Shown piece after piece: positions 4,791 to 51,400 of a DNA stretch of 64,000 nucleotides. The position numbers and the translations under genes were made by a program. The DNA is from Marsupella aquatica (Eukaryota; Plantae; Marchantiophyta): positions 23,510,558 to 23,574,557 of the forward strand of contig OZ316895.1 of assembly GCA_973895155.1 (NCBI GenBank), given 5' to 3'. The notes beneath the pieces are model-generated. The model saw only the letters and a list, made by a program, of their open reading frames with translations. It was not told the DNA's origin and did no database searches. Numbering within the stretch: the first letter of the stretch is position 1; each line of letters starts with the position of its first letter.

Positions 4791-6901
4791 ATTGTTTTAA
4801 AATCAAAAAAGTATGATCAGGAGAATAATCCTGGAATAATAATTAATTAATGTTTTGGGCATCGTTTTGTGAGCATGGATGGGACTAGGGTATACCCTTC
4901 CAGCTAACTCATTTATTAGGGGATCTCAGATATTGGGCTGTCATAGGTGTTACCAGGAGGTTGATACTGTTGCCCGTGAGGGGGATGCAGGCAAGTTTAA
5001 TGGAAGACATGGGGTCCTCACTTCTTTTCTTCCAACTGATCATGCGTGAAAATGGCTATCTAAGGTATGATCAGACACAATCACTCAAGGAAGCTGCTAC
5101 TTTGGTCTTTGCAAATACACAAATGAATTATGAATATGTGACAAAGGTAGCTAAGACTTTTGTGGATGACAAGATTGTCGCATATTCAGTCAATTTAAAT
5201 CCATTGAAGACCCTTGTGGATAACATGAGTGACAAACCTTCTCAAGGCTCTAGATAATGTCCAAGCCAGTGCAGGAGCTATTTTAATTTTGTTTGTAGGA
5301 TTTGTTTACTGATTTTGCATTCACCACTTGTCTGCTTGAGCATACTCAAACAATTTGGTGTTTGGTGCCAAACATTGACCACATTTATGCTCGGGGGCCT
5401 CACTCCAAGGGAGGTCCCATATCACGGGCGAAGTTTTCAAGGTAATAAACACCCTAAAATCTAAGAAAATAAAGTAGATTTTTACTATTTCTAAACCCCT
5501 AACTTTATAGAATGTTATAGAAATATTGCCATATTTGGTATTTAAAACCCTATTGTTCTTATAATCCTCAAGATTGGATTGAAACACCCCTATAATTCTT
5601 CAACAAAAAATTTAAAGTCTTCCGCACAATTGAATTAAAAAAACCCCTTACTTGTTCGCATGCGATGGATCGGACGAAAAGAACTGAGGGCCCCAGGCAT
5701 CCACGGAGAAAAAACAATAAGAATATGGAAACTGGAGGCCGGGGAATACAAATGTTGAGAGTTACTTTGGAGGGCCCTCGTTTTTAACAATTCCTTGAGC
5801 ATTTGTAATGTAACATCCTTGGTAACATCCCAGGCCACAATCAATATATGTTGTGTAGCCCTCAGGGCCCAAGGATGACAAGAATAAGGAGAACAAGTCA
5901 ATTAAATTAATTAGGCCTAAGAGAATATTCTTAGAATATTTTCCTCATAAAATAGGAGTATATTATATTAGGCTAGGATGACATGTGGTACCACTAAATA
6001 TACTAAATACACTAAATTAAGCCCCGGAGGCCTCCTCCATGGATCCTTATGGATCGGCACCCACCCCTACTAAAGGTTTGACAATGGAATGGGCCCTTGG
6101 TGCTCACAAGTAAGGTATACTTAGTTTGTTGGATGAGAACTAAACAACATTCTTTCTGAAGCTCTTCCTAGACAGTCTAAATGTTAATGTAGCCTTGTAA
6201 GAATGATCAGCTTGTCACTCTGGGCCCTGGCTACATGTAAACTATTAGAATCCTATTTGTGCACATTCATCGTCCCTTCGTTATGTCCCTTTCCTCATAA
6301 TATTTTCCTTTGTTACTAACAATAAATAAATGAGTTCAAGATATCTGTAAATTTCTCTAATGTGTGCATGATCTCTATGAAATCGAGTATGAAATACTTA
6401 AGCTAAGGGCCAAGGGTTCGTGCTGCCTGTGCCACAAATCGTGATCATACATCTTCACAATCTGCCAAGGTTTTTCTGCAGATTATGAAGGTGGGATGGA
6501 TCTCTTCACTTTGCATTATTTCTATCCACTTTCAATCTTCCAGGCCTTAAGTTTACCGTATCTCTGGAGGCCAAAGTTTCCTGATTAGCTATGGCAGCAT
6601 TTCTGGACACTGCTGATATCTTTGACTGCACTCAAAAAACTATGTGGGATACATACATGTCCCGCTCAGGCAGCCATTGCAATTATGCACAGTAATACAA
6701 CAGCCTATACTTGCTAAACCTTTTGAATTGGCATTCCTTCCACTTGTGTGAATGAATTCTGTTTCAAAACACTTAGCCCCATTCTGAGTGTTTATATTTT
6801 GTCTAATTAAAGTCATGAGCTAAACGCCTCACTCAGATAGTGGTAGTTTCTAAAGTCAGGTTATCTAATTTCTGGTGCTTAATTTATTATGGAGAAGAAT
6901 G

Positions 6902-7232
6902 TGTCACACCATTCTGAGTAGTGTAGTAGTATGAGTGCTATTAGAGTATGTACGTTTGGTATGAGTGCTATTGGAGCCGATAAGGTTCTGTCAGGTTTGT
7001 GTGAGAGGGTACTTCTCACTTGTGAGGCATTGAAAGGTCATCTTTCAATGTTGAGCCTTGGAGAGAGAGGAGCTTGAGTGTGGCTATGGTGGCTGTGAGC
7101 TCCGCTTGTGTAACGTGGATTCCTTGAGTAGTGCAAGGTGCGTTGGCTTGACATACGTGTGTGATCGGATCGGTGCGGGATCGATGGGGTATTGTTGACC
7201 GGGATCGTTGTGCCGATTGTATGGAGATTACA
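6902..7232 (+). repeat. Left terminal repeat, segment B1 (329 bp plus CA)
   Basis: 6902-7230 is identical by eye to 16709-17037. Confidence 0.95.
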
Positions 7233-7692
7233 TTGAAAGATCGCTCGAACTCTGCTGCTGTACGGATAGAGCTTCGATTGGAGGTTGTGTATTGGCGACG
7301 GTTTGTGGTAGTTCGAATCGATCGTGTTGTGTTGAAGAGGATTCGTGGTAGTTCAGATCTTATTGTTGACATTGTGTTGGAAGATCTATTCTGCCAGGGA
7401 GCTATTGTTTAAGCTTTCGACAGTTCCCGAAGGGCTCTGAGATGTGTTGATCGAAGGGCTGATCGACAGCAGAGGGATCTATGCCCGTGTTTGTAGATCT
7501 GTTGGACAGGGTCCGGACGGTGTAGTCGACCTTGCTGCGATCTGTCCCGAGTTGCGATCTGTGACAGTAGCGATCGGATTTGATAAGGCCGGCTGTGGCG
7601 CTGCTGTTTTGATGAAGGAAACGGAGATCAAACTTTGAATGCTGCGTTTTGCGTCACTACTGTTTCCATTCGATCATGTGTATGTTGCCGTC

Positions 7693-8964
7693 GCCAAGCT
7701 GCGATTTTGCGTGAAGGGACCCGCAGCCACGAAGTCGATGTTTTGTGAGGGAAATTGAGTCTGGATGTTGTGAGATCGAACTGTTGTGTTTCCGTCGGAC
7801 TGCTACTGCGATCTGTAATTCCGCGAAGGGAACCGAGAGGCAGAAGCTGGATGTTGCCGAATCTGATTGTGTGATCTATGAAGGGAAACCGAGGGCAGAA
7901 CCTGAATGTTGTCGAATCCGAAACTCGATCCGGCGTAGCGAAGCGTTGCGGGCGTGAAGGGCTCACTCTTTGGCTCATCTCGGCGTTTTGAGGCAACTCG
8001 TGGTTACTCGGGACGAGGGGCGTGAGGGTGGAGCAGGAGCGGGCCAGCAAGCCAGCTTGCTGGTACGTGAGGAGTAGTTGCAAGTGCTGCCATTTTGGAG
8101 TGGCAGATTTGGTGCATAATGACAAGTGAGAGGTCACCCATCCCAAAGCTATTCCTCCTCTCATGAGCTTAACTAGCAAGTTTCTATGTGGTGCATTGTA
8201 CATGCTTCCTTCCACATTTGATGTCCAAGGAATGAGGCCCTAGGGGTTTTATGCACTTTTGAATTCATCTAGATACTCTGTTTTAGCTAGTTTGCGATGG
8301 ATTCTTGAATATTTGACGCGGGATTCTTGAGGCCAAGCTGCGATTTTGCGTGAAGGGACCCGCAGCCACGAAGTCGATGTTTTGTGAGGGAAATTGAGTC
8401 TGGATGTTGTGAGATTGAACTGCTGTGTTTCCATCGGACTGCTACTGCGATCTGTAATTCCGTGAAGGGAACCGAGAGGCAGAAGCTGGATGTTGCTGAA
8501 TCTGATTGTGTGATCTGTGAAGGGAAACCGAACCTGAATGTTGCCGAATCCGAAACTCGATCCGGCGTAGCGAAGCGTTGCGGGCGTGAAGGGCTCACTC
8601 TTTGGCTCATCTCGGCGATTTGAGGCTTCGAGGCAACTCGTGGTTACTCGGGACGAGGGGCGTGAGGGCGGAGCGGGCCAGCAAGCTTGCTGGTACGTGA
8701 GGAGTAGTTGCAAGTGCTGCCATTTTGGAGTGGCAAATTTGGTGCATAATGACAAGTGAGAGGTCACCCATCCCAAAGCTATTCCTCCTCTCATGAGCTT
8801 AACTAGCAAGTTTCTATGTGGTGCATTGTACATGCTTCCTTCCACATTTGATGTCCAAGGAATGAGGCCCTAGGGGTTTTATGCACTTTTGAATTCATCT
8901 AGATACTCTGTTTTAGCTAGTTTGCGATGGATTCTTGAATATTTGACGCGGGATTCTTGAGGCC
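7693..8964 (+). repeat. ~635-bp tandem duplication in the retrotransposon 5' leader
   Basis: 7693-8331 and 8332-8964 are near-identical; the antisense ORFs 7628..8215 and 8249..8845 start with the same sequence. Confidence 0.92.
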
Positions 8965-9279
8965 TATTATGAAGGCCTTACATTGAACTATATGCACATT
9001 ATTTACATGTATTTCTGATTAATTGGTGTGGAGAGTTGTGGTAAATCCTCTTCTTGTTGTTGGATCCTCTCCACACATGCTTCATGTTTATGCGCCATGT
9101 TAGTTTGGCGTGGGCGCTTGATTCCATAGGAGTGATCCGGGTTTGCAACTGGACATTCTAGTGTGCCGTGTATTTCTCTCTTGGTGATGTTGGAGTGATG
9201 CCCAACACACCATGGTGAGTGCTTGTGGTGCTGACAGTGATAGATTGCCCTTAGGGTTAGCACATAGATTAGGTTAGGG

Positions 9280-12130
9280 TTGGTCACCACGGATTCTTCT
9301 GGTGCTGCTGGATTACCCGATGGACGACGGACCGGTTTCACTCGGAGTGGGGCACAGTTTCGGCCAGCGACATTGGTGGCAGTCAGCAGTGCAGCTTCAG
9401 ACAATGATTCTGATGAGGACTCAGTGACCAGTTCTCCTCATCATCAGGTGGTTGCACCTTTGTTGTGGGATATGGACGAGATGTACGGGGCTACAAAGGG
9501 CCCACGATGATACTCTGGTGCAGTTGGCACAATTGATCTGGATGACTTCATCCAGGAGTTTGATACGTGGTGCGATATGCAGACATTGCATAACGTCACG
9601 TTGTTTACCCCTTTCATGGCATGGAAGGGATTATTCCAGCATTTGGAGGGGCCACCCATGGATGACTACCATGAGTTTCGGAAGGCTCATTTGGTTGAGA
9701 TTGAGGCATGGAGGCAGCATTGGTCGCCTAATTACATGTCCATCACCTATGGCACTAGTGCAGCTGCCCAACCCATTGCCACAGCTGTTGCTTCTTCTAG
9801 CAGCACTAGCCAGAGTGGCACACCATCCACCACCAGCACTCTAGCAGCATCCACCACTACTCCTGCCGGTGTGATTGTGACAGGAACTGGAGTTGCGCCA
9901 ACATTTAATCCTGTGGTGGAATTCTTTGAGGTACTGAAGCAAAACTATCAGGGTGTGAGAACTGATAAGTTGAAGGGTCTTCAGGAGTTCCAACGCAAGA
10001 CTGGAGAGAGCCTACGTGAGGCATACACACATATGCGCAGATTGATCACTGTCACCAAGGGAGTGACAGAGGCTCAGGCAGTCCAGTTTTGGTATGCAAT
10101 TCTGGACAGAGAATTGCGACACAGAGTGAGAGATGTCAATCTGCTTAGGGATGCAGATCCCACATTAGCAGTTGTTTTCACCCTTTCTGAGCGCATTGAG
10201 CTCAATATGGTGAATGAGAAGGTGGTGACTTCCGATTTGCCAAGGAAGCACCAAAGGCTGCATCTACATCCACACCACAGCCTACTGCATGGAAGAGCCA
10301 GAGGGAGAAGCCTACTGCACGAGAGTCTACCAGCCAGAGACCTGTGCCCTCTTATGCTGGACAGCAGTCAGGATGTTGGACCTGTGGTGGGGATCATGCA
10401 CAGAGATATTGTCCAGATCATAGAGGATCAGGGGGAGCATCAGCGCTTGATCAGCGACAGTGTGATCACTGTGGAGCTCCTGGGCACACCAAGGATAGGT
10501 GTTTCTCACTCCACCCTGAGTTACGGAGAGGAGGATCCCGTACACATGATCAGGGAAGAGGAGGAGGAGGTAGAGGTGGTGGACGTGGTCGTGGCATGCC
10601 ACATGCAGGGAGACAGGGAGGTGACACTGCCCCTGCTGTAACCATAGATCCAAAGGATGCTAAGATTGCTCAATTGGAGCAACAACTAGCTGCCATGGCT
10701 AGTTCCCAGGTGAGACCTAATTCTGGTGATGGGGCATCTACATCCTATGGACCTTCCACATCCCATGGTCCTTCCACATCTTATGGAGCTGATAGAGACC
10801 TTGCCACCATGGGATTCATGTGTGGCACTGCACATATTGATGCATCAGCAGCTTTGACACGTGGGGCAGCCAAAGCTCTTGAGCCCCGAGGAGCAATAGT
10901 GGAGTTAGATCCACAAAGGGGGGATGCACGTTGGCAGACAAAGCTTCCTCAGTCTTTTACATTGTCAGAGACAGTTCAGACTGCCTCTATGAACCCGGTT
11001 CGGACAAACCCTGATGTGGGTAAGTTGGCAGAATCAGGTAGTGATGCAGCAGGGATGACAGGTACCTTGCTGGGGGCGGCTACTGCCATAGTACGCACCC
11101 CATTATTTTCAGCGATAGACATGCTGAACTTGGGAGTTGGTCCTGCAGAAGTGTTCAGATTGGTAGCTACACTCTGTGAGGACACTCCAGTGGTTGCTTC
11201 CCATGCAGAAGCAACTTGCAGTGTTGATGCAGTGAAGACCATGCCACCTACTGCTACTAGTGAGACATGGCATGCAGTAGCAGCGAGGTTGGTGGATTTA
11301 CCAGCACGCCCTGCATTTGAGAGGACTAGGTTTAAACCTAGTGTTGTGTCATTGGATAATCGGAGTGGTATCTTCCGATTAGTTGGGCCTTCTGGAGCAG
11401 TATACCAGCCAGAGAGAGTGTTATTGGATACTGGTGCTCAGCCCTTGATGGTGGGGAAGTCTGCCATACGTGGATTGGGATTGCGTCCAGAGGATTTGGA
11501 AGATTGTCCCTTTCCCATTCAGACTTCATTGGGGGGACCTACACCTACACAGCATATCACCAGGAGACCACTTGATTTGAGGATTCAGGAAGGTCATACC
11601 ACAGATAGCTCACAGATACAGGCGCGAGCTATTCTGACTAAGGCAGAGTCATATGATGTGTTGGTGGGATGTACAGTGCTCTACCCCATGGGATTTATTC
11701 TTGATTTTTGGGAGGAATCAGTGTCATATAGACCTGATTGGCAGTCAGGAGATGCTCGATTGAGCAAATTGCCAGTGAGATTTAGTGGACCTGTGGGAGG
11801 CCCTAAATCCACACCATTGTCTTTGGCAGCATTCAGTGGTGTAATTGTTGGACCTGATGATTTGATTGAGGGTAATGCGCATGCAGCCGATGTTCCACCA
11901 TTGGAGGAGTCTCATGAGGAGCACATCATGCGAGGATTACCTATTGGTAGTGTTGTGCCACCAGTGTGGGGCACTGCACAGGCCTTGCCACAGGCAATAG
12001 CACGATTGGTACATGATGCATGGTGTCATGCTTTTACACCACAGTCAGGAGCAGAGCAGTCTCTTGCAGATGGACCTGTGACTCTTTCACCATTGGATAC
12101 CACTCCTATTGCTTGGCAGTATCCACCGGA
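9280..12130 (+). pseudogene. Retrotransposon gag (two CCHC zinc knuckles) and aspartic protease
   Basis: Gag-like FQRKTGESLREAY; knuckles CWTCGGDHAQRYC and CDHCGAPGHTKDRC; protease LLDTGAQ (~11421) and YDVLVG. Stop at 9508-9510 and a frameshift near 10235. Confidence 0.88.
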
Positions 12131-13075
12131 GGGTATTTGTTTGTTGGATCTTTTTGGTGGGATTAGCACTGGATTGGCTGCTGTTCTTTAGGCAGGAATT
12201 CCTGTGCGTCGTTATTTGTATGTGGAGACAGATGAGACAACGCGGAGGGTCTCATTGCGACATGTGGCTATGTTGGTGGATAGATATCCATAGTTGCTGC
12301 CAGTGGATGCTGTTCGTGGTTATCAGCATGCACTACCTGCTGATATTTCATTGTTGGGGGCGGATCATCTACATCGTGTTGGCCCCATTGATTTGGTGAT
12401 TGTTGGTTGGTCATGTCAGGGCCAATCTGGAGCTGGCATTGGGCATGGACTTCATGATCCACGCTCTGCATTGTTTTGGGAGATGTTACGGGTGCTGCGT
12501 CATCTCCAGCTACATCAGACACAGTCTCTTGCATACATTTTGGAGAATGTGCCATTGTTAGGTGATGATCGTAGTCGGATTGTTGCCAGTGTTCACCAGG
12601 TGAGGTCTTGGATTGGACCTGCTGTGTTATTGGATGCTGCACGTGTCGGTTCTCGTGCACATCGTCCACGCTTGTGGTGGACTAATTTGATCCCATGTGA
12701 GGTGCTGAAGCACGCATTTGACAGCATTCCACGCTCACCAGCCTTAGTGGTGAATGATATTTTGGATCCAGGGTGTCGTGCACAGGGTGTGACCCAACCT
12801 GATAGACCTCCATTGGCAATGGTCAATGTAGTTGGGTGCCCACGTTGTGCATTACCCACTCTTGTAAGCCACTCTGCTTCATATGCATTCAGAGCAGGTG
12901 GCCCTGGACTTGTATGGGACATAGCTCTCCAGTAGTTAGTGGAGCCTACTGCTGATGAGAGAGAGCGTGCTATGGGATTTTTGACTCGCACCACTGCAGT
13001 TGCCTCTGTGTCAGAGGGTTTACGGCGCCAGGTTCTTGGTCAAGCAATGGATTTGAATTGTTTGACTTGGATTAT
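12131..13075 (+). pseudogene. DNMT3-like C5 cytosine DNA methyltransferase domain within pol
   Basis: One frame when the TAG stops at 12189, 12291 and 12933 are read through. Motif I LLDLFGGI; motif II YVETDE; motif IV DLVIVGWSCQG; GLHDPRSALFWE; motif VI ILENV; motif VIII RAHRPRLWWTNL; motif IX ERAMGF; motif X RRQVLGQAM. Confidence 0.88.
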
Positions 13076-13329
13076 CAGCTTGGGAGTAGCTGAACAGTTG
13101 TGGATGCGCTCTGCCGGAATTACTGATTGTCCCTTGGTGAGCTTGCGGTCCACTTAGACAGTATTGACCACAGCTGGGGGCGAGCAGACAGTCCATGGAC
13201 CTATGGCAGGATTGGCCAAGGCTGGACAGATTGTTGAGCAGGAAGGGACTGCTCAATCTACTGCTAAATAGCAATCATCGGCTATCTCTTCTACCCTACA
13301 AAGAGATATTAGGGATTTGGTGGAGAGTT

Positions 13330-16300
13330 GGGAACCACAGCTTGGCCCTAAGTTAACAGGGGAGGAGAGACGTTGCATGCATTGATTCCTGAAGAGTTAT
13401 TGGAATTGTTTTGCATTCAGCATGAAGGATTTGGGGACATTGAAGGGCCCTGGTATTCAGATTGAATTGGCTAGTGATGCGCCAATCTTTCATAGACCAT
13501 ACCGTTATAGTGACATGGAGAGAGCTCTGATTCAAAGCAAAACTCAAGATTTGTTGGAGGTTGGATTGGTGGAGATTTCATATGGGGAGTATGCATCTGC
13601 CACAGTGATGCCAGCCAAGAAGGATGTGCATGGCAATTACATAGATAGGCGCATGTGTGGTGATTACAGACCTATTAATCGCCAGACAAAATCTGATCGA
13701 TATGCCATGCCCACACCTGAGGAGATCTTTGATGCTGTGGGGCATGCAAAGGTTTTCAGTTCATTGGATCTGAGGGCAGGATACCATCAGCTTCCAATTA
13801 GGCATGCTGACAGGTCCAAGACAGCATTCTGGGGGATTGATTCTTATGGCAAAGATCGTTTGTATCAATGGTTATTCTTACCATTTGGGTTGAAGAATGC
13901 ACCAGCTGAGTTCCAGAGAGTCATGGATTGAATCCTTGCAGGTTTGGATTTTGTCAGATTATATTGATGATATTTTGGTCTATTCTTCTACTGTGGAAGA
14001 ACATCAGCAGCACTTGCAGATTGTGTTGGAGAGATTGAGAGCACATGGGTTGAAGCTCCATCCTGGCAAGTGTAAGTTCTTCCAAGACCAGATTGAGTAT
14101 TTGGGCCACACTATATACCCAGGGGGATTGGGTGTACAACAGACTAAAGTGGAGGCCATTACACAAATTCCTCATCCTACTGATGTGAGCAGAGTTCGTG
14201 CATTCTTGGGATTGGCGAGCTACTATAGGAGGTATGTTAAAGGATTTAGCCAGCTTGCTAAACCTTTAACCATACTCACTAAGTTGGATCAGGAATGGAC
14301 TTGGGGTGATGACCAAGAGCATGCCTTTCAGGAGTTGAAGCAAAGGTTGGCATCATCCCCTATTTTGAGAAGACCCATTTCAGGCAGACCATTTCAACTA
14401 CACACTGATTGGAGTGGAGTAGGACTTGGAGCAGTGCTGACTCAGAAAGATGATGAGGGGAATGAGTTTGTTGTGGCTTATGCCAGTAGATCAAACAATG
14501 CAGTAGAGGCTAAGTATAGCTCTTATGAGGGAGAGTATTTGGCAGCAGTGTGGGCTGTTGCACACTTTCGTTGCTACTTGTTTGGTAACCCCTTTACCTT
14601 GATCACTGATCATCAGCCTCTTAAGTGGTTAATGGAGTCTGACAAGCTTGCAGGGAAGCTTGCACGATGGGCATTGTTGTTACAGGAGTATGATTTCCAG
14701 GTGGTGCATAGGCCTGGAAAAGTGAACTTGGATGCAGATGGATTAAGCCGCAATCCATGTACCAGTCAGCAAGATGAGACTGGAGCTAGATGGCATGATA
14801 AGTCAGATAAGGAGATGGTGCTAGGATGGCATGCATCTGTCTTTCTTTGTTGGGTGCCAGCATACAGTGGATCTGTGGACTCTACCTCATTGGATGGAGT
14901 GGATGATGAGTCTTCAGATGTGGATGTTGGTGAGGTAACTTCTGGACAACAAGATATTCACAATGATGTGAGAGTGTTGAAATATCTGCGCAGTGGTTCT
15001 ATTGTTGGCAGTGTTGATGTCAAGGAACGTGACAGGGTTCTACAGAGAGCCAAGAGGTTTCGATGGGAGAGAAACCATCTTTTGAGAGTACTGCATGATG
15101 GTAGGATGTTGGTGGTACCAAAACCATCACAACGAGTACATTTGGTGCGACATGCGCACGAGGAGTTGGGTCACTTTGGTGTGAAGCGCACTTACAGCTT
15201 GCTGCAGACACAGTATTGGTGGCGTGGTATGCACACTCATGTCCAGCAGTTGATAGCTAAGTGTGTGGTATGTGACAGAGTGAGAGCATCATTTAATGCT
15301 CCCACTCCCCAGTTGCACCCGTTACCGATCATGGGTTTGGGATATCGTTGGAGTTTGGATTTTGTTGGTCCATTACCTCTTACCCAACGTCATAATCGAT
15401 ATGTTTTGGTCATGGTGGAGCACTTCTCCAAGTGGATTGAGCTAGTGGCGTAGCCAGATAAAGCCAGTGGAGGAGTTGCTGCTACATTTTTGGATTGTGT
15501 ACTCAGTCATTTTGGAGCACCAACTGAGGTGTTGACTGATCAGGGAACTGAGTTCCGTGGAGAGTTTGAGAGTTTGTGTGAACAAGCTTTGATTGATCAT
15601 CGCACTACCTCTCGTGATCATCCTGAGGCAGATGGATTAGCTGAGAGAGTTGTGCAAACTGTGAAGAGAGGATTGCGTAAGTATGGCTTGCAGGTTGGTC
15701 ATCTGGGAGATTGGGATCTCCAGCTACCTTGGTTAGCTATGGGCTATCGTTTCAGTCGGCAAGCATCACTTGCATCCTTCTCACCCTACTTTTTGCTCTA
15801 TGGTAGAGAGCCAGATTTCCCAACAGCTATTCGTCGTCATGCTGCACCAGTTGTGAACTTGGATGATCCTGATGTTTGGGTCAAGGTGTGTTCAGAGAGA
15901 GCACGGGTATTTCAGAGAGTGATGCCCATGGCTTTTGACAACCTTGCCATTGCCCAACATCGTGATACTTTGAGGTATGCCACTATTCATGGAGGAGGTT
16001 ACCGTGCAAGCATTCGACGATTTCATCCTGGTGATTATGTTTATTTGCAGCAGACAGCACCCACGACACTTGATGTGACCGCAGACCGGACAATCTTACG
16101 TGTGCGTGAAGTGTTGCCTTCTAGTGTCCTGATGTTGGAGGGACGCGATGGTATGGTTTGGAAGGATCATGTGCGCAACTGTGCACCATGTCACCTTCCC
16201 AACATTGATGGTACAGTAGATCCAAGCTTGGCACATGTTCGTGCTGGCTTGAAATGTATGTTGTGTGGATCTGCTCAGGGAGTAGCTACTATGTTGATTT

Positions 16301-16395
16301 GTGATAAGTGTTCTAGAGGATGGCACATGTCATGTTTGACACCACCATTGCAGGTGATTCCTAGTGGATCATGGTTGTGTCCTCAGTATCGGTGA
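13330..16395 (+). pseudogene. Retrotransposon reverse transcriptase, RNase H, integrase and C-terminal PHD finger
   Basis: RT: RMCGDYRPIN, SSLDLRAGYHQ, LPFGLKNAP, YIDD. RH: LHTDWS, TDHQPL, DADGLSR. INT: HEELGH..CVVC, SLDFVG, TDQGTEF, DGLAER. PHD at 16255-16389. Stops at 13929 and 15451 and a frameshift near 13955. Confidence 0.95.
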
Positions 16396-16570
16396 AGCCG
16401 ACTAGTTATCATTTGTGTTCTCTTGGCAGATATGGATTGCAGGTAGGTGATCGATGGGGCTCACTTGCACCCGGCCTCCTGATCTTCACACCTAAAAAGG
16501 TGTATATCAACCTTGTAGAACTCATGGCTAGCTAGAGTTAGGGGACCTTACTCCCAGCTAGGGGGGCGAT

Positions 16571-17174
16571 TGTGGGTTTTGGACATGTGTGGACATGAGT
16601 TCCACTTGTATTCCATTCTCTTGTATTTGTGATGTGGCAGTGTGACTATGTCTGGATGTATGTGACAAGCGATGTATGTTGTGTAGCGATATGTATGCGC
16701 ACGACAGCTGTCACACCATTCTGAGTAGTGTAGTAGTATGAGTGCTATTAGAGTATGTACGTTTGGTATGAGTGCTATTGGAGCCGATAAGGTTCTGTCA
16801 GGTTTGTGTGAGAGGGTACTTCTCACTTGTGAGGCATTGAAAGGTCATCTTTCAATGTTGAGCCTTGGAGAGAGAGGAGCTTGAGTGTGGCTATGGTGGC
16901 TGTGAGCTCCGCTTGTGTAACGTGGATTCCTTGAGTAGTGCAAGGTGCGTTGGCTTGACATACGTGTGTGATCGGATCGGTGCGGGATCGATGGGGTATT
17001 GTTGACCGGGATCGTTGTGCCGATTGTATGGAGATTATTGTGGGTTTTGGACATGTGTGGACATGAGTTCCACTTGTATTCCATTCTCTTGTATTTGTGA
17101 TGTGGCAGTGTGACTATGTCTGGATGTATGTGACAAGCGATGTATGTTGTGTAGCGATATGTATGCGCACGACA
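16571..17174 (+). repeat. Right terminal region A1 (16571-16706) - GC - B2 (16709-17037) - A2 (17039-17174)
   Basis: A1 and A2 are identical 136-bp copies and B2 matches B1. The A1/B2 junction is the palindrome GACAGCTGTC. Confidence 0.93.
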
Positions 17175-18359
17175 AATGCATAGTCCACATTTGGATTGAG
17201 GCAATATGAAATTTTGCCTCTACTTTTACTAAAACTATTAAAATAAAAAATCTCTTCCGCCTTTAAGCATGTTCACACCATGTTATTGAAGGTGTTCTGG
17301 GCGTGTTCTGGGCAATAATAGCCCCTCAAAACTTGACCTAAGACCCTCCTTTTTAGGGGCATTATGGTCCACAATGTCCACTTACTAGGGCATTACTTTG
17401 TAAATCATATTGAGATTGGAGTGTACTTCCTTGCCAGAGTTTTCTAGCCTTGGAGCTTTCTAGCCTTGGAGCTTGGAGGTGTCGCACTAAGGAGGGTCCC
17501 ATATCACATGCAACATTTTGGGGTAATAAATACCGCCAAAAAAAATCATTACCAAAATAAATTTTACTCCTTTCTTTTGGAATATTTCAAATTCATGTTT
17601 TGAGACCCAATAAAATTCTTGCTAAAATATATATTACTCCTTTCTTTTGGAATTTTTCAAATTAGTGTTTTGAAAACCCCATTTTTCCTGATAATGCAAA
17701 AGTGTATTAAGAAACACCTGATACTATTTGTATGCTAGAAACTATGATTGAAGGACTTAATTTGTGATTCTCTATTGATTGAATGATCATGTCTTGCATT
17801 TTTTCTAAATTTTTTTCCATGCCTCGAATGGTGTTTCCACAGACATAAATAATGTTTGATTTTATATGCCCTTGCAAATACATCTTACTGGCTGGAAAAA
17901 TTCATAAGTTACACACATTAATTGAGTATTCATCACACACTATTTGTGGATCACCAAAAATAATCTTCCTTATTTTAATTTAGAATAACATATATTTACT
18001 CTCACTTTTTATATAGTCTCACACACATTAATTATGGTGATATCCTTCAAAATCCTTTGTTCATAAATACTGTGTGTGATACTAATTACGGTAATCAGTG
18101 TAGTTTCCGATGTGTCATGTTTTGCTGTGACACCTAGCTGCATGCACTTCCCTCTTCAAAAGCAAAGATAACGGGGCAAAATGTGAGAGCAAACAATGGC
18201 CTAGACTGGAGGGCCAAGAGCAATTCTTCGCTTGCAACTGTGAAATATCCGTCGCCATTGTTTTCTGCGAGAATGTTGATAGATTCTTCATCAAACTGAG
18301 AATTGTGTTCGAATTGAAATCTCACTGAGTTTCCCACAAAGTGAGATTGATGATTTGAT

Positions 18360-39707: not shown

Positions 39708-40874
39708 ATGTCCTCTTCCTCTGAACTATCCAGTAGTGAGTACTCCTCCGATGACGATATACCCCCTCCTCCTCAGCCCGAGGTTACTGGTCCTCGTGGT
39801 CCACCCCGAAGACTTTGTGACTGCACCAGATGTGTGGGCCAAATTTCTCAAAAATCTTATGTGTGTGCTCAACATATTGAGAGATATGGACGTCATAGAG
39901 GTCTTACTCCTAGGGCTTCTTCATCCCATATGGTAAGTTTGTTTCAATTGATTGCGGTTCTTTACTGTTATTTTTAGAGGTGAATCAATGTTTACACATA
40001 TGGTTTACACATTTGGTTGTTTGTGGGTGTTTGCATGGAATAGGGATCCAGTATGCGTAGATTGGTGACACCACCACCCTATGTCCCATCACAAGGAGTT
40101 TTAGATGCTATAGGCAATGCACTTTCACAAGCCTTGGGTTTGGGAATTAGTACCAGTCATGGGACAGAAGGGGAACACCCTCATGTGCCCACTGAGACAC
40201 GAAGACCCCGGTCCAGGCCCCAATCCAACAGGAGGCCACGAGCACCCAATGACCCATCCAGAACACTAGTTCAGGGTAGGTGGGGTGTTTGTTCATTCAC
40301 TGGCAAGTGTGCCTCTATCATCAAGGATTGGGAACCTATCACTCTTGGCTTGCCTTATTTTACAGATTTTGATGAGGAGATTGTGGTTTGGGGTAGACGT
40401 TGGATTGTGAAAACTTCCACACTTGGAGAGAGACATGGATATGGAGTATTTGCTTGTGAGGATATCATCATGGATGAGGAGGGTGGGTCAAGTGTTCGTG
40501 GTAGAGAGGGTCCTACTTTGTTCCCATACGGTGGACCCATCTACAAGAGAAGACATTGGAACATGATCCTTGCACAACATCCTGAGTGGAAAACATATGC
40601 TCTAGAGATGGATACTTTTGATGGTAGCACTAGAAGGTATAGTGAGCAGCGGGTGATAGATGGTGATCCCATACGTAATGGGAATATTGCTGGTTTCATA
40701 AATAGTACTGTGGGGACTCGGCCCAAGCGTAGGGCCAATTGTGAGTGGGTTTTTACTGATGGTCCAATGCCGGCACCATATGGCACGACATATCATAAGG
40801 ACCATTGCTTAGTTCTTGCTACTAGGACCATTAGAGCAGGAGATGAGTTATTCACACACTATGAGTGGGATTAG
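39708..40874 (+). CDS. SET-domain lysine methyltransferase-like protein in the CACTA element (exons 39708-39932 and 40044-40874)
   Basis: SET motifs HGYGVFACEDI, PYGG, YAL, IDGD..GNIAGFINS, NCEW, LATRTIRAGDELFTHY. Open frame with no stops and a phase-0 GT-AG intron. Confidence 0.82.
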
Positions 40875-43800
40875 GAAATCATGTCCTTTATCCTCTTGCA
40901 CCTATTTTGGACTTCCCATTTACTATTATATATATGGCCTTTGGGCTCATTTTGGAGTAATAAGGTTTTAGCCCATGCATTTACTTTAATTCTTAATGTC
41001 TTGAATGAATGGTGTTAAGTCTATTTTAATTTGTTGTACTTGGTCAAATATACATGAGGAGGTTTTTTGGTTGTAATGTGCATAGAATGCGCAACCATCT
41101 CAACAAATGTTACCACGAAGGTTGAGAGCAACATATTGGGAGATGGGTATGCCAGAAGAGGGAGAACCATCAGAGGGTGATTCCTCATCAAGTAATGATG
41201 TAGGTGGTGCTGATGAGGAAGCCGCACCTCGGACTGATGACCAGGTCATGCATGATCAAGATAGAGCCATGGATGACTTCATGGTTGATTGGTTTGGTGC
41301 CGATGTTGAGGATGATGTGCCTCACATTGGTCATGAGGTTGGCCCTTCAAATGACCCACGGCCACAACATACTCCAGAGGGACAACAACAATGGAAAGAG
41401 GCAGAGGAACATGCTCGAACACCTATTTTTGAGGGTGCTCGGTTGAGCCGTCTTTCTGCCATATTGGGGCTCTTGAACATTCAAGCCAAACACAAGACAA
41501 GCAATTCTATGTTATCAGACATATTTGAATATTGTCATGACTTGATGTTACCCTCGGAGAATGTGTTGCCAGGGACCTGGAAGGATGCAAAGAAGGTTCT
41601 CTCATCCATTGGTATGGATTACCATATTATTCATGCCTGTGTGAATGATTGCATGTTATTTCACGGGGATACAGCCCATATCACAGAATGCACAGTGTGT
41701 CATGAGCCACGGTATGAGCCAAACATGCTAACCCAGAAGGTACCAAGGAAAGCAGTTTGTTGGTTCCCCATAATTCCTCGCTTGTTGCACATGTATAGAT
41801 GTTCTTACTTGGCCGAGTTGATGGTATGGCACAAGAAACATCGTTCGGAGCCCGGTGTCATGCGATTACCAGTTGACTCTCCTGCTCATAAACATGTGGA
41901 ATCAACATGGCCAGATTTTGAGCGTGACCCTCGGCATGTGCGACTGGGGTTGGCATCAGATGGAGTTAGCCCTCATTCACTTGGAGGGAAGGGGAGACCT
42001 ACATCGGTCTGGCCTGTGGTTCTCATGAATTACAACCTTCCACCATGGTTGTCCATGAAAAAGGGTTTTTTGTTGCTATCTTTGATTATCCCAGGGCCAA
42101 AGAAGGTGAAGAACATGGACACCTATTTGACATTACTGGTTCAGGAACTCCAGAAATTATGGGAAGGAGTATGGGCATATGATGGTCGAAAGACTACAGG
42201 GGGTACCCCACGGGTTTTCAAACTCAAAGGGGTTTGTATGTGGACCATGCATGACTACCCAGGTAAGAACTTTGTTGTTTAAATGCATCATATTCTAATG
42301 CATGGTATCCCCTCATTTCCATGTGCTAATCCTAACATAATGTGTGTTTATATGACCAGGATTTGGCTTTGTGAGTGGGTTGCAAACCCAAGGCTACAAG
42401 GCTTGCTCCACTTGTGGCCCAAGCCTTGGTGATGTAGCCAAGTATTCATCACATCTTCGCAAGATTGTTTATCTTGGGCATACAAAGTTTCTTCCAATGG
42501 GACATCAGATGAGGCGTGACCCACTACTATTTTCCTCTATTGATATGCCCTTTGGTGACGAGCGTGATGTACCTGAGCCAACAACTTTTACACACTGGAA
42601 AGACATGGCTGCAAGAGTGGCAGACCCAGAGGATCCCATGCAATTTGATGGTAGTGGCTTGACAAGGTGGAGTATATTAACCACTTTGCCCTATTGGGGT
42701 GAGTTGAAGATCCGCCATCTATTAGACCCCATGCACATTGAGGGAAATGTGGGAAAGGCTTTGATAAAGGCTTTCTATGGAGAGAAAGACACTAACTTCA
42801 GGGAGGCTTGTGAGGATCTTGAGATGCATCCAGACGTGTGGGTCATAAGTGATCCTATCACAGGGATCGAGCATCGACCTTCAGCTCCATGGGTGCTTCC
42901 TATTGGCCAGAGAAGGGAGTTTCAGAATCGCATAGGAGACATGCGGTTTCCTACTGGTTATGGTGCCAATCTCCGAAAGGCCTTTGGGATGGAGGACAAT
43001 CATAAGTGGCCAAGGTATCTCAAGACACATGACTACCATAGGTTATTGCAGCACATATTGCCTGTGGCCATAATAGGTTTGGCAAGTGAAGAAGTGCAAG
43101 ATGCCCTTTGGTCATTGGGAAAACTATTGAGATGGGTATGCTCTAAGGAGATATATACTGATGAGATCCCTGGGATGGAGGTTTTGGTAGCAGAGGTGGT
43201 ATGCAAGTTGGAGAAGGCCCTTCCTCCTTCCTTTTTTGACTGTCAAGTGCATTTACTTGTTCATCTTGTTCATGAGGTGGCCATTGCAGGTCCTGTGCAT
43301 TGTCGGTGGATGTATTGGCTAGAACGATACATGGCAGTGTTAAAAGGTTATGTACGTAACCGTGCACGGGTTGAGGGAAGCATGGCTACAGGATACTTAG
43401 CAGCTGAGAGTATGTTCTATTGTAGTAACATATTGGCCACAATTGATTGTACCTCTCCCCGTACTTGGGTAGAGGAGAGGGAAGATGAAGAGGATCGTTT
43501 AACAGGTGCTAGGAAAACTCGCATGTTGACATCAGTGGAGGTGAAACAACTGACCACATTCATGTTGAGTAACAGCACTATCATGGAAGAATGGAGGGAT
43601 TTCTATGAGGATGCCAAAAGTAACAGCACAAGACCAAGGATTTTTCCAAAGTACCTTGACTATATGAAGGAGAAGTTAGTTGAGGTGGATGACATGGTGG
43701 TCAGGGGAGAGAGTGTATTACATTTTCCGGCTATCACAGATGATGTTCGTACCATTGTTCATGGTCCCTTGAGAGTGGTTACAACAAGGACAGCAATGTG

Positions 43801-44479
43801 GACACAAGGAAGACATTTCAGGTGATCTCCATCTACCTTAGTAACCTTTGATTTGAATCACTTGGTTTAATTTAATTCATTTGTAATACAAGCACGTATA
43901 TTGAAGAGGCAGATTCTTGGTGTGTTCAATTAATTGGAATATGTTTGTGTCTATTTTTGTGTAACATATCCTTATGGTTTGATGGATTTTAGGATTTCTT
44001 CCCTTGATGAGAAGAGGGGTCGTACCTTTGATTGTGGAGTTCAAGGACAATTCTCTCAAGATTCCCGCAGCAGTCGGCATGACACAAATATTATTCGAGA
44101 TGTTGTGCCACATTATGGAAAGGTAGAAGAGATTCTAGTGATATCTTATGATGCACAATCAAAGTTTGAAGAGTATGTCTTCAAGTGCAAATGGTTCAAA
44201 GTGAACCTTGCAGGTAACAATCCTACTGTGGTTCAAGATGAGTGTGGATTTACACGACTGAAGACTTCTGCCACTAGTTTCCAGCCATCTCATTGGCAAA
44301 CATCAGAGCCGTTCACTTTTCCAAGTCATGTGGAACAATGTTTCTATATTCCATACCCCCCAAACCCAGAGGAATGGTCACTTGTCATCACATATGTGCC
44401 ACGGTCTCGTTCAATCGTTGGGGAAAAGCCTGATATTCTGGTTGTGTCCCAACCTGAAGATGATGAGGACCAAGTTTGA
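39708..44479 (+). CDS. CACTA TnpD-like transposase (predicted exons 39708-39932, 41086-42262, 42360-43821, 43993-44479; 1116 aa)
   Basis: N-terminal CDCTRC..CAQH..YG transposase-associated motif; IHACVNDCMLF; LASDGVSP; YNLPPW; HDYPG; MHIEGNV; LKTHDYH; HLLVHL..GPVHCRWMY..ERYM; HYGKVEEI..FKCKWF. Exons sum to 3351 nt with no stops. Confidence 0.92.
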
Positions 44480-48426: not shown

Positions 48427-51400
48427 TCAGTCTGTCTTCTTGTCAGCTGCTTTTTGATCACCATCAGCTGTTGGCACCTCTCCTTCAGATGTGCTTTCTT
48501 CAGAGACAGACTCATCAAAATCAAGTAGCTGCAGTTCAGGCAAAGACAAGTAGGCCACATGTAAGTACGCTGGTCCATTCAACATATTTATGCAATTATC
48601 TTTCAGGTAGTCCTCCATGAGATCTTTACCGCAATCGTAAGGAAAAATGATGCAGAACTTTACCGCTTTGACTTCTCCTTTCATCAAACTGTGAACAGCT
48701 ACGAAACCAATAACACCTGGTACAATGTAGAGTAGAGCTGGCTGCAACACACAAAGAGGAGTAGGTTAGAGACGATAAAAAGTGAGCATTCACCTAGCTG
48801 TGGTCTTAATAACGACGTAATCTCACGTGAAACAGACGTGAAGGAGATTGGGAACATATCATTCGCTTTCAACATTTGCAGAGCTCACATGTGCAGATAG
48901 GATGTTTCCGTAAGGCTAACCTGAGCAGCTTGAAACCAATTCATGACAACTATGGTCACCAATAATCCTGCAGTATACCCCGCAAAGGCACTGTTGAAGT
49001 AGCGTTTGCCGGTCTTCTGAGAGACGTCAAACCGTAGAGCAAGGGCTACAAAAATGCCTGTACATGGAATTCAATTAAGTCAGCAACGAGTATACATATC
49101 TGAAAGAATGAGAATTTGGAGTTTAAAATAAAATCCTGGGGACTGACGTAACCACAAACCTGGAATGACAATGTCGCCCAAGCCCAGCATGGAGAATGGT
49201 CGGGTTATATCTCCTGTGGGAAATATCAGCTGCGGAATACACGAAACAAACAAATATCAAAATTTCGAAAGCAATGCTTCCGACCTGAAACTTCAGTTAT
49301 TGGATGATGTGAAGAAAAGCCTACATTACATGGAAAGTGTCTGACCCAGTGGCTAAGATTTAGTAGAGTATATACCCCAAACCTATCTGCCAGTGAGGAG
49401 TGCTTGAATGCCCTTTTGTGTAGACCAACTACTGCAACGCATCGAAGGGAAATGAATGATGTACCTTGATAGGAGCGTCAAATGACTTAGCAACGCTGAC
49501 CATAACCGGAGTAAAGAAGACCCAAAATATGTCATAGAAAAATAACCCTGCCTACAAAGTACCAAAACAAATTATTCAGTAATAGAACGAAAGTCTGGGT
49601 ACGTTATAAACTTCGTAAGCCGAAAATAAGTAGGAGATACGCTACACAGTAATTGCCAATTAAACTTCACTTTCTCCACAATGGGGAACGGTCCACAAAA
49701 CACTCCCATCAGAGAAGTTTCGAATGAGAACATAACAAATACATACCAGCAGGATCGCACCGATCTTGAATGATCCTAGAGACAACATCTCAATACCCTG
49801 CAGGAAATTTGCAAAGAGGCAAAGACTATTGGTCCTCCGCGAAAATCTTACGACAGGGAATTCAGGAGCTTGACCGGCATAAAACGTGAGAGATGCAAAC
49901 ATTGTGAATTCCAAGATGTCATTGTGTATATTTTCTTCAACAATATTTGAAACCAAAGTGATAACAAGAGCATTAAATACCTGTATGGAGAAGGCCAACC
50001 CCAGTGTATTGTTTGCCAGCCAATGCTTCTTCAAGACATACCAGACACAAAAAAAGGTGCCTGGAATGCCTGCAATGACCTGCGACTTGGTGAACACCAC
50101 CTCCACTTCTGCATTGTATCCAAGGCAATTAGTTTTGGCAACGTATAAGTCAGCTCATCGGTGTGCCACAAACTATTTGAAGACTTTCGTTTTCGGGAAG
50201 ACATTATCTCTCTCCGGCCATCAAATGAAAGCATGTGCACATGGATAGGCTAAGAATGGTTTTGGCACATATTCGCTGTGTCAACACAACTGGTACAAAT
50301 TATTTCAAAGGGATCGAAGTGACCAGTTCAACAGGCAAGGAATTACGAAAGAGAAAATGCGCAAAACTTCGGGAAATCTCACTTTTGAAATAGGGGAGAT
50401 CCCAGGTGATAGGGACATCATTCCAACTTGGGGGCAGGAAGCTGTCAATCACCGGTAATATTGTTGCACTGCAAAACATCAATAGATGTAAACCAGATGG
50501 TAAGCACACAATCTGCAACATTCACGTCTCAACATATTGCTCCAATATTCAAGGCTATCCAAAAACACAAATCTCTCTGAGACGGTCATGAACCGTTTGG
50601 TAGAAATGAAACAAAGTGAACAATAACATCTAACGTTCAGACTGATGCAGAAAAGGATAGCTTAGCATTGCCCACAAAATTAGTGATTTTGAGCCCACAT
50701 ACGATAGCGCAAGAATGCCCAGAACAAAGAAGTAGACCGTGAGGACTGTGTTGATCAGATCCTTCGGAAGGAACTTGAATAGAAGGAAAAGCGAGAAAAG
50801 AACAGCACTCCCAATGAATGGAAAGCGCATTGCGTGCTCCTTCGACATTGTTTCCTGCAATACACAGACAGCCCTTAGAGGTGCATCAAAACCCTACGTG
50901 AATTTTCACCTTGAGTCAAACAGCCTATCCAGCCAAAATTAAAGAGCTAGAAAAAAGCAGATTAAAGGAGGCAGAGAAACTTACAGTAGGAGGCGCAGGC
51001 TTGACAGAGCGGTGGCAACCAATGAACACAGTCAGGCATGCTGTTGCTATCACATTGAAGTTCGGGTTCACTGTCACTACCAGAGGTGCCAGAGTCAAAC
51101 CTGCAAACGAAAGGTGTACAAAAGATGCCGTGCTTAAGATCAAGCTCAAAACATCTGAACTCCACGGGCCAAATATATTTTTTGCGCTCGCTGTGATCCT
51201 TAAGGGAACCAAGGCCACACCTGATGGCTAATACAGCACAGCTGTGGCTGATGTACAGGAACATTCCCAAACCTTACCAACGGCATACTGCAAACCTACA
51301 AGGTGTGGCTTTGAATTTAAATTGGCGTAAATTGAACTCCCAAGAAGCAAGATAGAATCCCAGACTGATGCTTGAACCCGGTTATTTCGCACATTGCAAG

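Follow-up and report, generated by a model that had tools for sequence, protein, structure and literature searches.

The Ty3/Gypsy element at 6902-17174 of the window (the whole 64,000-nt stretch of Marsupella aquatica DNA analyzed) ends in the wrong halves of its long terminal repeat (LTR). Read from the sequence, its order is B1, primer binding site (PBS), leader, gag, pol, polypurine tract (PPT), A1, GC, B2 and A2. There is one complete LTR as defined by reverse transcription, it is internal (16569-17036), and the termini of the element are B and A rather than two complete LTRs. The permuted ends recur among relatives, where two further families share them, and appear to be a heritable design of the family, not a single event. 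Integration was probably from cDNA in which U5 was joined head-to-tail to U3, as in a 2-LTR circle, with a DDE integrase opening a CA-NN-TG palindrome.

Permuted ends in the window and in relatives

The B-internal-A-B-A layout with B and A at the termini, first described in a first-pass annotation of the window, is borne out by comparison of the repeats (Table 1). B1 and B2 (6902-7230 and 16709-17037) are identical at 329 of 329 nt, and A1 and A2 at 138 of 138 nt. Only GC separates A1 from B2, the junction at 16703-16712 reading GACAGCTGTC, and a 21-nt string across that junction occurs once in the window with 0 occurrences expected in shuffles. The left terminus reads GAAGAATG and then TGTCAC, the right terminus CGACA and then AATGCATAG. 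As also first described, AATG stands cleanly on either side as a 4-bp target-site duplication (TSD), and the central GC of GACA-GC-TGTC is missing at the termini. The B2/A2 join (GGAGATT, then ATTGTGGG) had been taken to lack a few bases. It is instead an exact joint of the U5 end to the U3 start with no bases lost, given the predicted PBS at 7230-7241, set by its 12-nt self-complementarity, and a PPT that ends at 16568. Reading B.A as the true LTR (TG..CA, 466 bp) is ruled out, because in every family A1 is preceded by the PPT and B1 followed by the PBS.

Table 1. Features of the element and its flanks, in window coordinates
Feature	Position	Strand	Basis or remark
Left TSD copy, AATG	6898-6901	+	Read directly; matches 17175-17178
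B1, start TGTCAC (integrase-type end)	6902-7229	+	100% identical to B2; U5 end set by PBS start
B1, predicted core promoter and R-U5	6902-7039 (core promoter), 7040-7229 (R-U5)	+	Predicted from self-primer position and TATA at -31 in relatives
Hairpin CATTGAAAG-gtc-ATCTTTCAATG	7028-7051	+	3' arm 7040-7051 is predicted self-primer and RNA 5' end
Predicted PBS ACATTGAAAGAT	7230-7241	+	12-nt exact complement of 7040-7051
Leader containing a ~635-bp unit twice in tandem (identity 94.6%)	7693-8964	+	Repeat comparison
gag-like ORF	9511-10638	+	No Pfam match
pol part 1: two CCHC knuckles, protease, Dnmt3-type C5 methyltransferase (about 12090-13150), RT start	10218-13928	+	
pol part 2, other frame: RT, RNase H, integrase H2C2 finger, rve core, C-terminal PHD finger	13894-16392	+	
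Polypurine-type tract AGGGGGGCG, adjoining A1	16560-16568	+	Sequence read
A1, predicted U3 start, end GCACGACA	16569-16706	+	Repeat identity, sequence read
Palindrome GACA-GC-TGTC, predicted integrase site inside U3	16703-16712	.	Junction sequence; recurs in relatives
B2, remaining U3 and R-U5 of the complete LTR	16709-17036	+	Repeat identity
A2, directly on the B2 U5 end (U5-U3 head-to-tail joint 17036/17037), end CGACA	17037-17174	+	
Right TSD copy, AATG	17175-17178	+	Read directly

The relatives comprise 56 metagenome loci, and six 5' ends and 20 independent metagenome 3' ends were counted. An A-NN-B-A tail with a GACA-NN-TGTC junction is present in four independent metagenome copies (L001 = L021, L004 = L005, L009 = L011, L023 = L024) and in a second family (L022) with 44% pol identity; pol identity between families keeping this tail is 44-70%. 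The central NN is GC, AC, AT or GT among relatives while the CA and TG half-sites are constant. Taken alone, the ten-base motif is not rare, as it is also found at unrelated coding positions of other loci. In 6 independent copies, however, the palindrome lies exactly at the repeat boundary, and perfect 4-bp TSDs flank three of the four complete copies, which together is beyond chance.

The perfect TSDs are AATG in the window, TCTC around the complete copy L011 and TGTG around L013; in the fourth copy, L028, the flanking 4-mers match at three of four positions. Permuted ends with a TSD thus recur in other copies, a point on which the first-pass annotation had made its reading depend, and the normal A+B LTRs it named as the refuting case were not found: A stands upstream of B1 at 0 of the 6 5' ends, and none of the 20 independent 3' ends from the metagenomes has B as its terminus. 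A single A closes 13 of those 20 3' ends and the B-A tail of the window the other 7, a minority state among old copies. Plain B-internal-A relatives, L013 being a complete one, are common, which the earlier annotation had not foreseen.

Where B meets A, the join shows neither gain nor loss of bases in the window, in L004, in L023 and in the second family; L001/L021 carry one substitution there and L009/L011 a 19-nt filler. Such a spectrum of exact joints, substitution and filler is typical of end-joined 2-LTR junctions. In L020, U5 is joined by snap-back to an inverted B(178-1), and the join falls precisely on the primer/PBS.

In the host, flank contigs (Logan contigs of three runs from two studies, among those listed) enter the element for 28 and 27 nt with 0 differences, a reach below the 31-nt bridging criterion, and read support for the locus is limited to that extent. 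The empty site, 6901 joined to 17175, was not found among the contig joints listed. Contigs leaving the A end at 16706/16707 run into unlike, heterogeneous sequence (at least 10 in X2 and at least 3 in X3), and a minority of canonical ends may exist in the host genome.

Coding content and priming

The copy is young, belongs to a very abundant Ty3/Gypsy family and is coding-defective, as are all the relatives. Pfam places RVT_1, RT_RNaseH, Integrase_H2C2 and rve in Ty3/Gypsy order, the searches having used the window's own pol read-through with stops as X, and an Atlas search matched generic Gypsy RT-RNase H-integrase clusters. The protease gives a weak Asp_protease_2 match (E 0.009) along with an LLDTGAQ motif read by eye. 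The integrase combines H2C2, rve (3.1e-14) and a PHD finger (1.6e-9), the last standing at the C-terminus, where no chromodomain was found. A DDE integrase on a Gypsy element is what the first-pass annotation had called, and neither Phage_integrase nor any other Pfam recombinase was matched in the 7 and 11 ORFs scanned (18 in all). The methyltransferase region matches PF00145 at 1.5e-7, has DNMT3A/3B/3C as its best solved relatives in a PDB search (1.5e-10), and is collinear and coding in relatives. Read depth over the leader tandem copies is far below that over the rest of the element.

Part 1 of pol contains five interrupting TAG codons (12189, 12291, 12933, 13155, 13269) and one TGA (13383), and part 2 a single TAG (15451). 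These in-frame stops are best read as nonsense mutations. An alternative code with the six in-frame TAGs as sense is ruled out, as the TGA and the frame change would remain and relatives show Q, E, V or mixed residues at the TAG positions and have their own stops elsewhere. Introns at 12189-12293 and 13155-13385 are likewise ruled out, since relatives align through both in one frame.

Priming is predicted to be Tf1-like self-priming. A tRNA-type PBS is ruled out, as the bases after B1 do not begin TGG. The complementarity between self-primer and PBS is 12 nt in the window, 12 nt in L028 and 11 nt in L039, at the same position in each; the letters differ between these families but covary, and the match was equaled in 2, 6 and 15 of 5000 shuffles, respectively. 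Relatives also have an equivalent hairpin with different letters. Both the MFE and the centroid RNA folds are closed by the self-primer/PBS pairing, and the whole RNA folds no better than shuffles (z = -1.16 and -1.59). In relatives TATAAAG lies 31 nt upstream of the primer; the B of the window element has no such TATA. As for the PPT, CTAGGGGGGCGA is kept before A1 in L011-type relatives and decayed in L004/L005 and L038/L039, and the second family has a longer G run there.

Given that the PPT adjoins A1 and the self-primer site adjoins B1, the repeat built by reverse transcription is predicted to be A-NN-B. The TG..CA ends given to the LTR first proposed (A+GC+B+CA) are not needed, since priming is predicted to be of the Tf1 type.

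The proposed integration route and its rivals

Under the route favored here, transcription would begin in B1 at 7040 and stop in B2, giving an RNA of the form R-U5-PBS...PPT-U3-R. Its first 12 nt would fold onto the PBS and prime the minus strand in the fashion of Tf1. The linear product of reverse transcription would then be [A-NN-B]-internal-[A-NN-B], and neither of its termini, ATTGTG... and ...GGAGATT, would be an integrase end. U5 would next become joined exactly to U3, either through end-joining that closes a 2-LTR circle or through template switching from end to end. The integrase would cut 3' of CA on both strands at the palindrome of the PBS-proximal LTR, leaving recessed CA-OH ends with 2-nt 5' overhangs, and insertion with a 4-bp stagger would produce B-internal-A-NN-B.A. 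The design would be heritable because only this form keeps an internal A-NN-B from which the full U3 can be recopied. Plain B-internal-A copies would be sterile, and may come from cutting of both palindromes, from a 1-LTR circle, from linear cDNA or from later deletion between A1 and A2.

Such cleavage has a precedent: tetramers of HIV-1 integrase cut the palindrome where the two LTRs of a circle meet (PMC1905944). Foamy virus integrase reportedly cleaves 2-LTR circles (PMC1180852), and an HIV reversal study (PMC4372172) is said to bear on the same reaction. The first-pass proposal of a circular intermediate opened at an att-like site within the LTR is still the best explanation, now supported by a design conserved across families. 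More tentatively, and with the chances close to even, an ancient lineage of DDE-integrase retrotransposons may replicate obligatorily via head-to-tail U5-U3 cDNA that is opened inside U3.

The numbers of each end form count in part against a circle. Random cutting of a 2-LTR circle would be expected to yield B.A-NN-B-internal-A and the form actually observed in equal numbers, yet the former, a mirror form, is seen at 0 of the 6 5' ends (about p = 0.08 when 7 of 20 tails have the observed layout, from small numbers). Its absence would be explained by directional extension of the right end, if reverse transcriptase itself made the U5-U3 joint through template switching or concatemeric cDNA and integrase excised B...A from a linear multimer with no circle. 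End-to-end template switching is a property of other reverse transcriptases, the joint is exact in most copies, and the snap-back in L020 shows that aberrant reverse transcription products of the family do integrate. The 19-nt filler in L009/L011 is more like end-joining, however, and we consider this alternative fairly unlikely.

It is very improbable that the element always inserts as plain B-internal-A, after linear cDNA of the ordinary kind is processed internally, and gained its B.A tail later by insertion of a released B.A fragment or by conversion. The single A at most 3' ends and the TSD of the plain copy L013 would fit such a history. B-internal-A cannot template the full U3, though, and so the lineage could not persist, while the A-NN-B-A tail is kept across families only 44-70% identical in pol. 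Moreover, the A1/B2 spacer is 2 nt, B2.A2 is not bracketed by a 4-bp duplication of its own, and in both the window and L011 the TSD encloses the whole B1...A2 unit.

Even less credible is a DIRS/PAT/Ngaro mechanism, in which a closed circle with the internal junction as bridge is inserted by a tyrosine recombinase. The repeat layout fits A-coding-B-A-B, the order that PMC5890265 gives for elements of DIRS type, but the 18 ORFs hold an rve integrase and no recombinase domain, 4-bp target duplications are present, and reverse transcriptase cannot copy A2 from the RNA because the PBS adjoins B1 and the PPT adjoins A1. Finally, a one-off rearrangement or assembly artefact of a canonical element can practically be dismissed: internal junctions at the locus lack 31-nt two-sided bridging among the contigs listed, but the layout recurs in 5 independent metagenome copies of two families with conserved half-sites and TSDs of their own, the repeats are fully identical within a clean TSD, and flank contigs of all three runs enter B1 and A2 without a difference.

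Implications and known systems

It has long been asked whether retroviral DNA in circular or end-joined form can ever truly serve as a substrate for integration, and the genomic record here implies one such substrate. If a whole lineage does depend on the favored route, cleavage of the circle-junction type would be the main integration route in a natural system and not a dead-end side reaction, and a Gypsy lineage would have converged on the split-repeat design of tyrosine-recombinase retroelements. The family's youth and its great abundance in the host make it experimentally approachable. The Dnmt3 domain, PHD finger and self-priming are three captured or unusual modules tied to one lineage. 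For annotation, paired-LTR finders will pair B1 with B2, misplace the boundaries and miss the duplication, and they will miss the common B-internal-A copies entirely.

The split direct repeats (A1-coding-B1-A2-B2) are shared with PAT, Ngaro and DIRS elements and imply that replication passes through an intermediate that is circular or end-joined. Those elements rely on a tyrosine recombinase and are not known to duplicate their target, whereas in the window element an rve integrase goes with TG/CA-type ends and 4-bp duplications.

The closest described system is KnitGypsy-Dnmt3 of Klebsormidium nitens, a Gypsy element with Dnmt3 whose repeats are structured "the same as" those of a DIRS retrotransposon (de Mendoza et al. 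2018, PMC5890265). Compared by description only, it is like the window element in its Gypsy domain composition, the Dnmt3-type methyltransferase in pol and the DIRS-like repeats. As a DIRS-like layout on a Gypsy-Dnmt3 element is already in print there, the layout itself is not new. The text of that account gives no ends, TSD, PBS/PPT, mechanism or PHD finger, and the hosts differ, Klebsormidium in the one case and what looks like a plant with CACTA transposons in the other. A literature search for a published mechanism found only this paper, whose text gives the layout without explanation; our proposal would supply a concrete mechanism for its 2018 remark.

Self-priming is described for the Tf1/Sushi group and the plant Tcn1 clade of Ty3/Gypsy (Neumann et al. 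2019, PMC6317226). As far as that description goes, the window element is like them in having no tRNA-type PBS and a predicted transcript start complementary to a site just past U5. Elements of those groups carry a chromodomain and two complete LTRs, while the ends of the window element are permuted and its pol includes a PHD finger and a Dnmt3 domain.

The retroviral 2-LTR junction is similar in that, as described in PMC1905944, a CA..TG palindrome is cut on both strands to give integration-competent ends. In retroviruses the palindrome is the U5/U3 joint and the reaction a side path. In the window element the palindrome is set 138 nt within U3, the provirus retains an intact U5/U3 joint, and this route would be an obligatory one.

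Repeat architecture and coding content of the window element

The Ty3/Gypsy retrotransposon in the window carries two copies each of the repeat parts A and B in the order B1-internal-A1-GC-B2-A2. GC alone separates A1 from B2, resulting in the palindrome GACAGCTGTC, and B2 passes directly into A2. At the left border GAAGAATG is followed by TGTCAC, and at the right border CGACA is followed by AATGCATAG; a 4-bp AATG duplication bounds the unit 6902-17174. The unit starts with the right half of the palindrome and ends with the left half, the central GC being absent from both termini. Repeat finding, self-BLAST, the border sequences and the duplication bear out the layout and ends described in the first-pass annotation. 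Contigs linking the locus to its flanks reach just 28 and 27 nt into the element.

Features of the window and of related metagenome loci (L handles; = joins duplicates; n, independent 3' ends)
Feature	Position or loci	Remarks
B1; B2	6902-7230; 16709-17037	329/329 identical
A1; A2	16569-16706; 17037-17174	138/138 identical
Palindrome	16703-16712
Predicted RT-defined LTR	16569-17036	A-NN-B
Leader	7693-8964	two tandem ~635-bp copies, 94.6% identical
Right flank, AT-rich	17536-17675	two tandem 70-bp units, 83% identical
CACTA/En-Spm-type transposase ORFs	40044-44476	Transposase_21, DUF4218, DUF4216; SET-domain ORF before them
Signal peptide peptidase exon (PF04258, 1.3e-9) and weak BTB match	49660-50151 and 62449-63069
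Full A-NN-B-A tail	L001=L021, L004=L005, L009=L011, L023=L024	n=4
Full A-NN-B-A tail, second family	L022 14653-15305	n=1; pol 44% identical to the window's
A-B aberrant or truncated	L020, L038=L039	n=2
Single A, then unrelated sequence at once	L002, L010, L012, L013, L014, L022, L025, L026, L027, L028, L031=L042, L032, L036	n=13
Second Gypsy family	L022 12681-15305	directly after the first element's single-A end; own A-GT-B-A tail; PPT with long G run
Deletion of A end, NN and B start	L038 6834-6994 = L039 12600-12760	between two ATGAC microhomologies
Inverted B join	L020 3363-3876	past A-GC-B2

Between the repeats lie a gag-like ORF and coding sequence for two CCHC knuckles, a protease, a C5 cytosine methyltransferase (best solved relatives DNMT3A/3B/3C, 1.5e-10), RT, RNase H and an integrase. 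The integrase combines an H2C2 finger and an rve core (3.1e-14) with a PHD finger at its C terminus. No tyrosine recombinase match turned up among the 18 scanned ORFs. The window copy is defective, with six in-frame TAGs, one TGA and one frame change; relatives have Q, E, V or mixed residues at the stop positions, and the same stretches are open in one frame there. Given 467 identical repeat bases alongside broken coding, the insertion was likely recent and its template already defective, and the copy presumably moved in trans. At the stops 12933 and 13383, aligned relatives also stop in 5/18 and 8/23 segments (duplicates counted); either conserved read-through or a mutational hot spot (CAG/CGA) may underlie this. 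The strands are asymmetric across 7001-17000 (GC skew +0.10 to +0.29, mostly T>A; flanks near zero). Taken together with nonsense codons of the CAG-to-TAG type, the skew suggests either C-to-T change on the plus strand or a family compositional habit.

In three runs of host reads (X1, X2, X3), k-mer depth summed over the coding part, which is not a copy number, exceeds that of the flanks by three to four orders of magnitude. The leader has a read depth far below the rest of the element and therefore marks a small subfamily. Elsewhere in the window, 40044-44476 is a plant-type DNA transposon whose SET domain was possibly captured, and the peptidase exon and BTB match are likely host gene fragments.

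Element ends across the family

Searching metagenome contigs with the RT-RNase H-integrase ORF yielded 56 related loci (28-86% identity), of which 30 were matched by BLAST with A and B from the window, L011 and L022. The 3' ends were counted after merging duplicate loci, recognised by identical flanks. The A/B junction invariably reads ..(C/T)GACA-NN-TGTCA.., the dinucleotide NN being GC, AC, AT or GT. Complete copies of both kinds, B-int-A-AT-B-A in L011 and B-int-A in L013, have flanking duplications of their own (TCTC and TGTG), and in L028, with an internal deletion, the flanks agree at three of four duplication positions. Unrelated sequence precedes B1 at all six readable 5' ends (window, L011, L013, L016, L028, L039), A-NN standing upstream of B1 at none of them, and no metagenome 3' end surveyed stops at the B terminus. 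Normal A+B LTRs at both ends, considered in the first-pass annotation as a feature other copies might have, were sought in the metagenome relatives, where canonical insertions numbered zero. Judged from these end sequences, the B-internal-A-NN-B.A layout is a family design and no accident.

Among host reads, at least 10 X2 and at least three X3 contigs track A as far as 16706/16707, beyond which they diverge and are heterogeneous; one X1 contig, among the matches listed, leads from the A end across 10 other bases into another copy, at position 16165. These contigs are compatible with A as the true terminus in many copies. The depth of A far exceeds that of the first 100 nt of B, which we attribute to putative variation of B's head between subfamilies. 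The deletion in L038/L039 removed the palindrome there.

Predicted priming, polypurine tract and U5-U3 joint

The polypurine-type tract (PPT) CTAGGGGGGCGA adjoins A1 in the window and L011-type relatives. L004/L005 and L038/L039 retain decayed forms of it, and in the second family the G run at this position is longer. The predicted primer-binding site (PBS), ACATTGAAAGAT (7230-7241), 12 nt from the last shared base of B1, is the exact complement of 7040-7051 within B. L028 keeps complementarity and position with changed letters (ACTCAAAGAACT versus AGTTCTTTGAGT at B+164), and L039 has 11-nt complementarity at B+165; shuffled B reached the same length in 2, 6 and 15 per 5000 cases (window, L028, L039). 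The complementarity is lacking in L011 B1 and L016, where the primer hairpin is deleted. When the predicted 5' RNA was folded from a start picked from the complementarity, the primer/PBS stem was closed in the MFE and centroid structures, and the whole RNA folded no better than shuffles. TATAAAG lies 31 nt upstream of the primer sequence in relatives; such a box is absent from the window's B.

From the placement of self-primer/PBS and PPT, U3 would be A, NN and the first ~138 nt of B, R-U5 the remainder of B, and the RT-defined LTR A-NN-B, with ends (ATTGTG.. and ..GGAGATT) that are not of the TG/CA type. The B2/A2 join, previously annotated as short of a few bases, would then be the exact joint of U5 end and U3 start, nothing missing. 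The second family, L004 and L023 share this exact joint; L001/L021 depart from it by one substitution, and L009/L011 have 19 nt of filler there, ending in bases that match the end of the PPT.

In L020 the PBS/primer sequence is the exact point at which the U5 end meets inverted B 178-1, which ends ..GGTCATGACA beside the flank. This join looks like a fossil of integrated snap-back, self-primed cDNA and would be a direct trace of self-priming; a chimeric metagenome contig is a possible explanation.

A proposed joined intermediate and its known counterparts

With the PBS after B1 and the PPT before A1, RT would be unable to copy A2 from any element transcript, and its product would be limited to [A-NN-B]-internal-[A-NN-B]. 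A B-internal-A-NN-B.A provirus would require that U5 be joined to U3, either while reverse transcription proceeds or once it is complete, and that the molecule be opened at the palindrome in the PBS-proximal LTR. Cuts 3' of CA in each strand of GACA-NN-TGTC would produce what retroviral 3' processing normally yields, recessed CA-OH ends with 2-nt 5' overhangs. Such integrase-type cuts would account for the missing NN at both termini and for the 4-bp duplication. B-internal-A-NN-B.A would be the sole fertile form, because it alone keeps an internal A-NN-B from which U3 is recopied. The design is kept across families whose pol sequences are 44-70% identical, so passage through the joined intermediate would be obligatory for these elements.

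Among the old relatives, the plain B-internal-A form predominates. These copies could be direct products, with both palindromes cut, from a 1-LTR circle or by internal processing of linear cDNA, or could have arisen by deletion from one A copy to the other, a distance of only about 330 nt. If a 2-LTR circle were cut at random, the observed form and its mirror image, B.A-NN-B-internal-A, should be equally frequent; the mirror form is nevertheless absent from all six 5' ends, a small number. A U5-U3 extension made directionally by RT would explain that absence and is a live, if less probable, alternative. Head-to-tail joining and opening at the palindrome, as the first-pass annotation proposed, is the best available reading, though unproven and now corrected in its details.

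The excerpted text of De Mendoza et al. 2018 (PMC5890265) already gives this layout, for KnitGypsy-Dnmt3 of Klebsormidium, with neither element ends nor mechanism; our literature search found no description of such elements beyond PMC5890265. The window contributes a young copy whose repeats are identical and whose duplication is clean, a conserved palindrome in which the central dinucleotide is free, a predicted self-primer and PPT that would fix the RT boundaries, and a putatively exact U5-U3 joint. The element is of real interest for the field of retroelement integration. Foamy virus integrase reportedly cleaves a 2-LTR junction. HIV-1 integrase cleaves the palindromic 2-LTR junction in vitro (PMC1905944). 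Self-priming is known in Tf1/Sushi elements and has also been predicted in the Tcn1 clade of plants (PMC6317226), and the window element is predicted to have the same arrangement.
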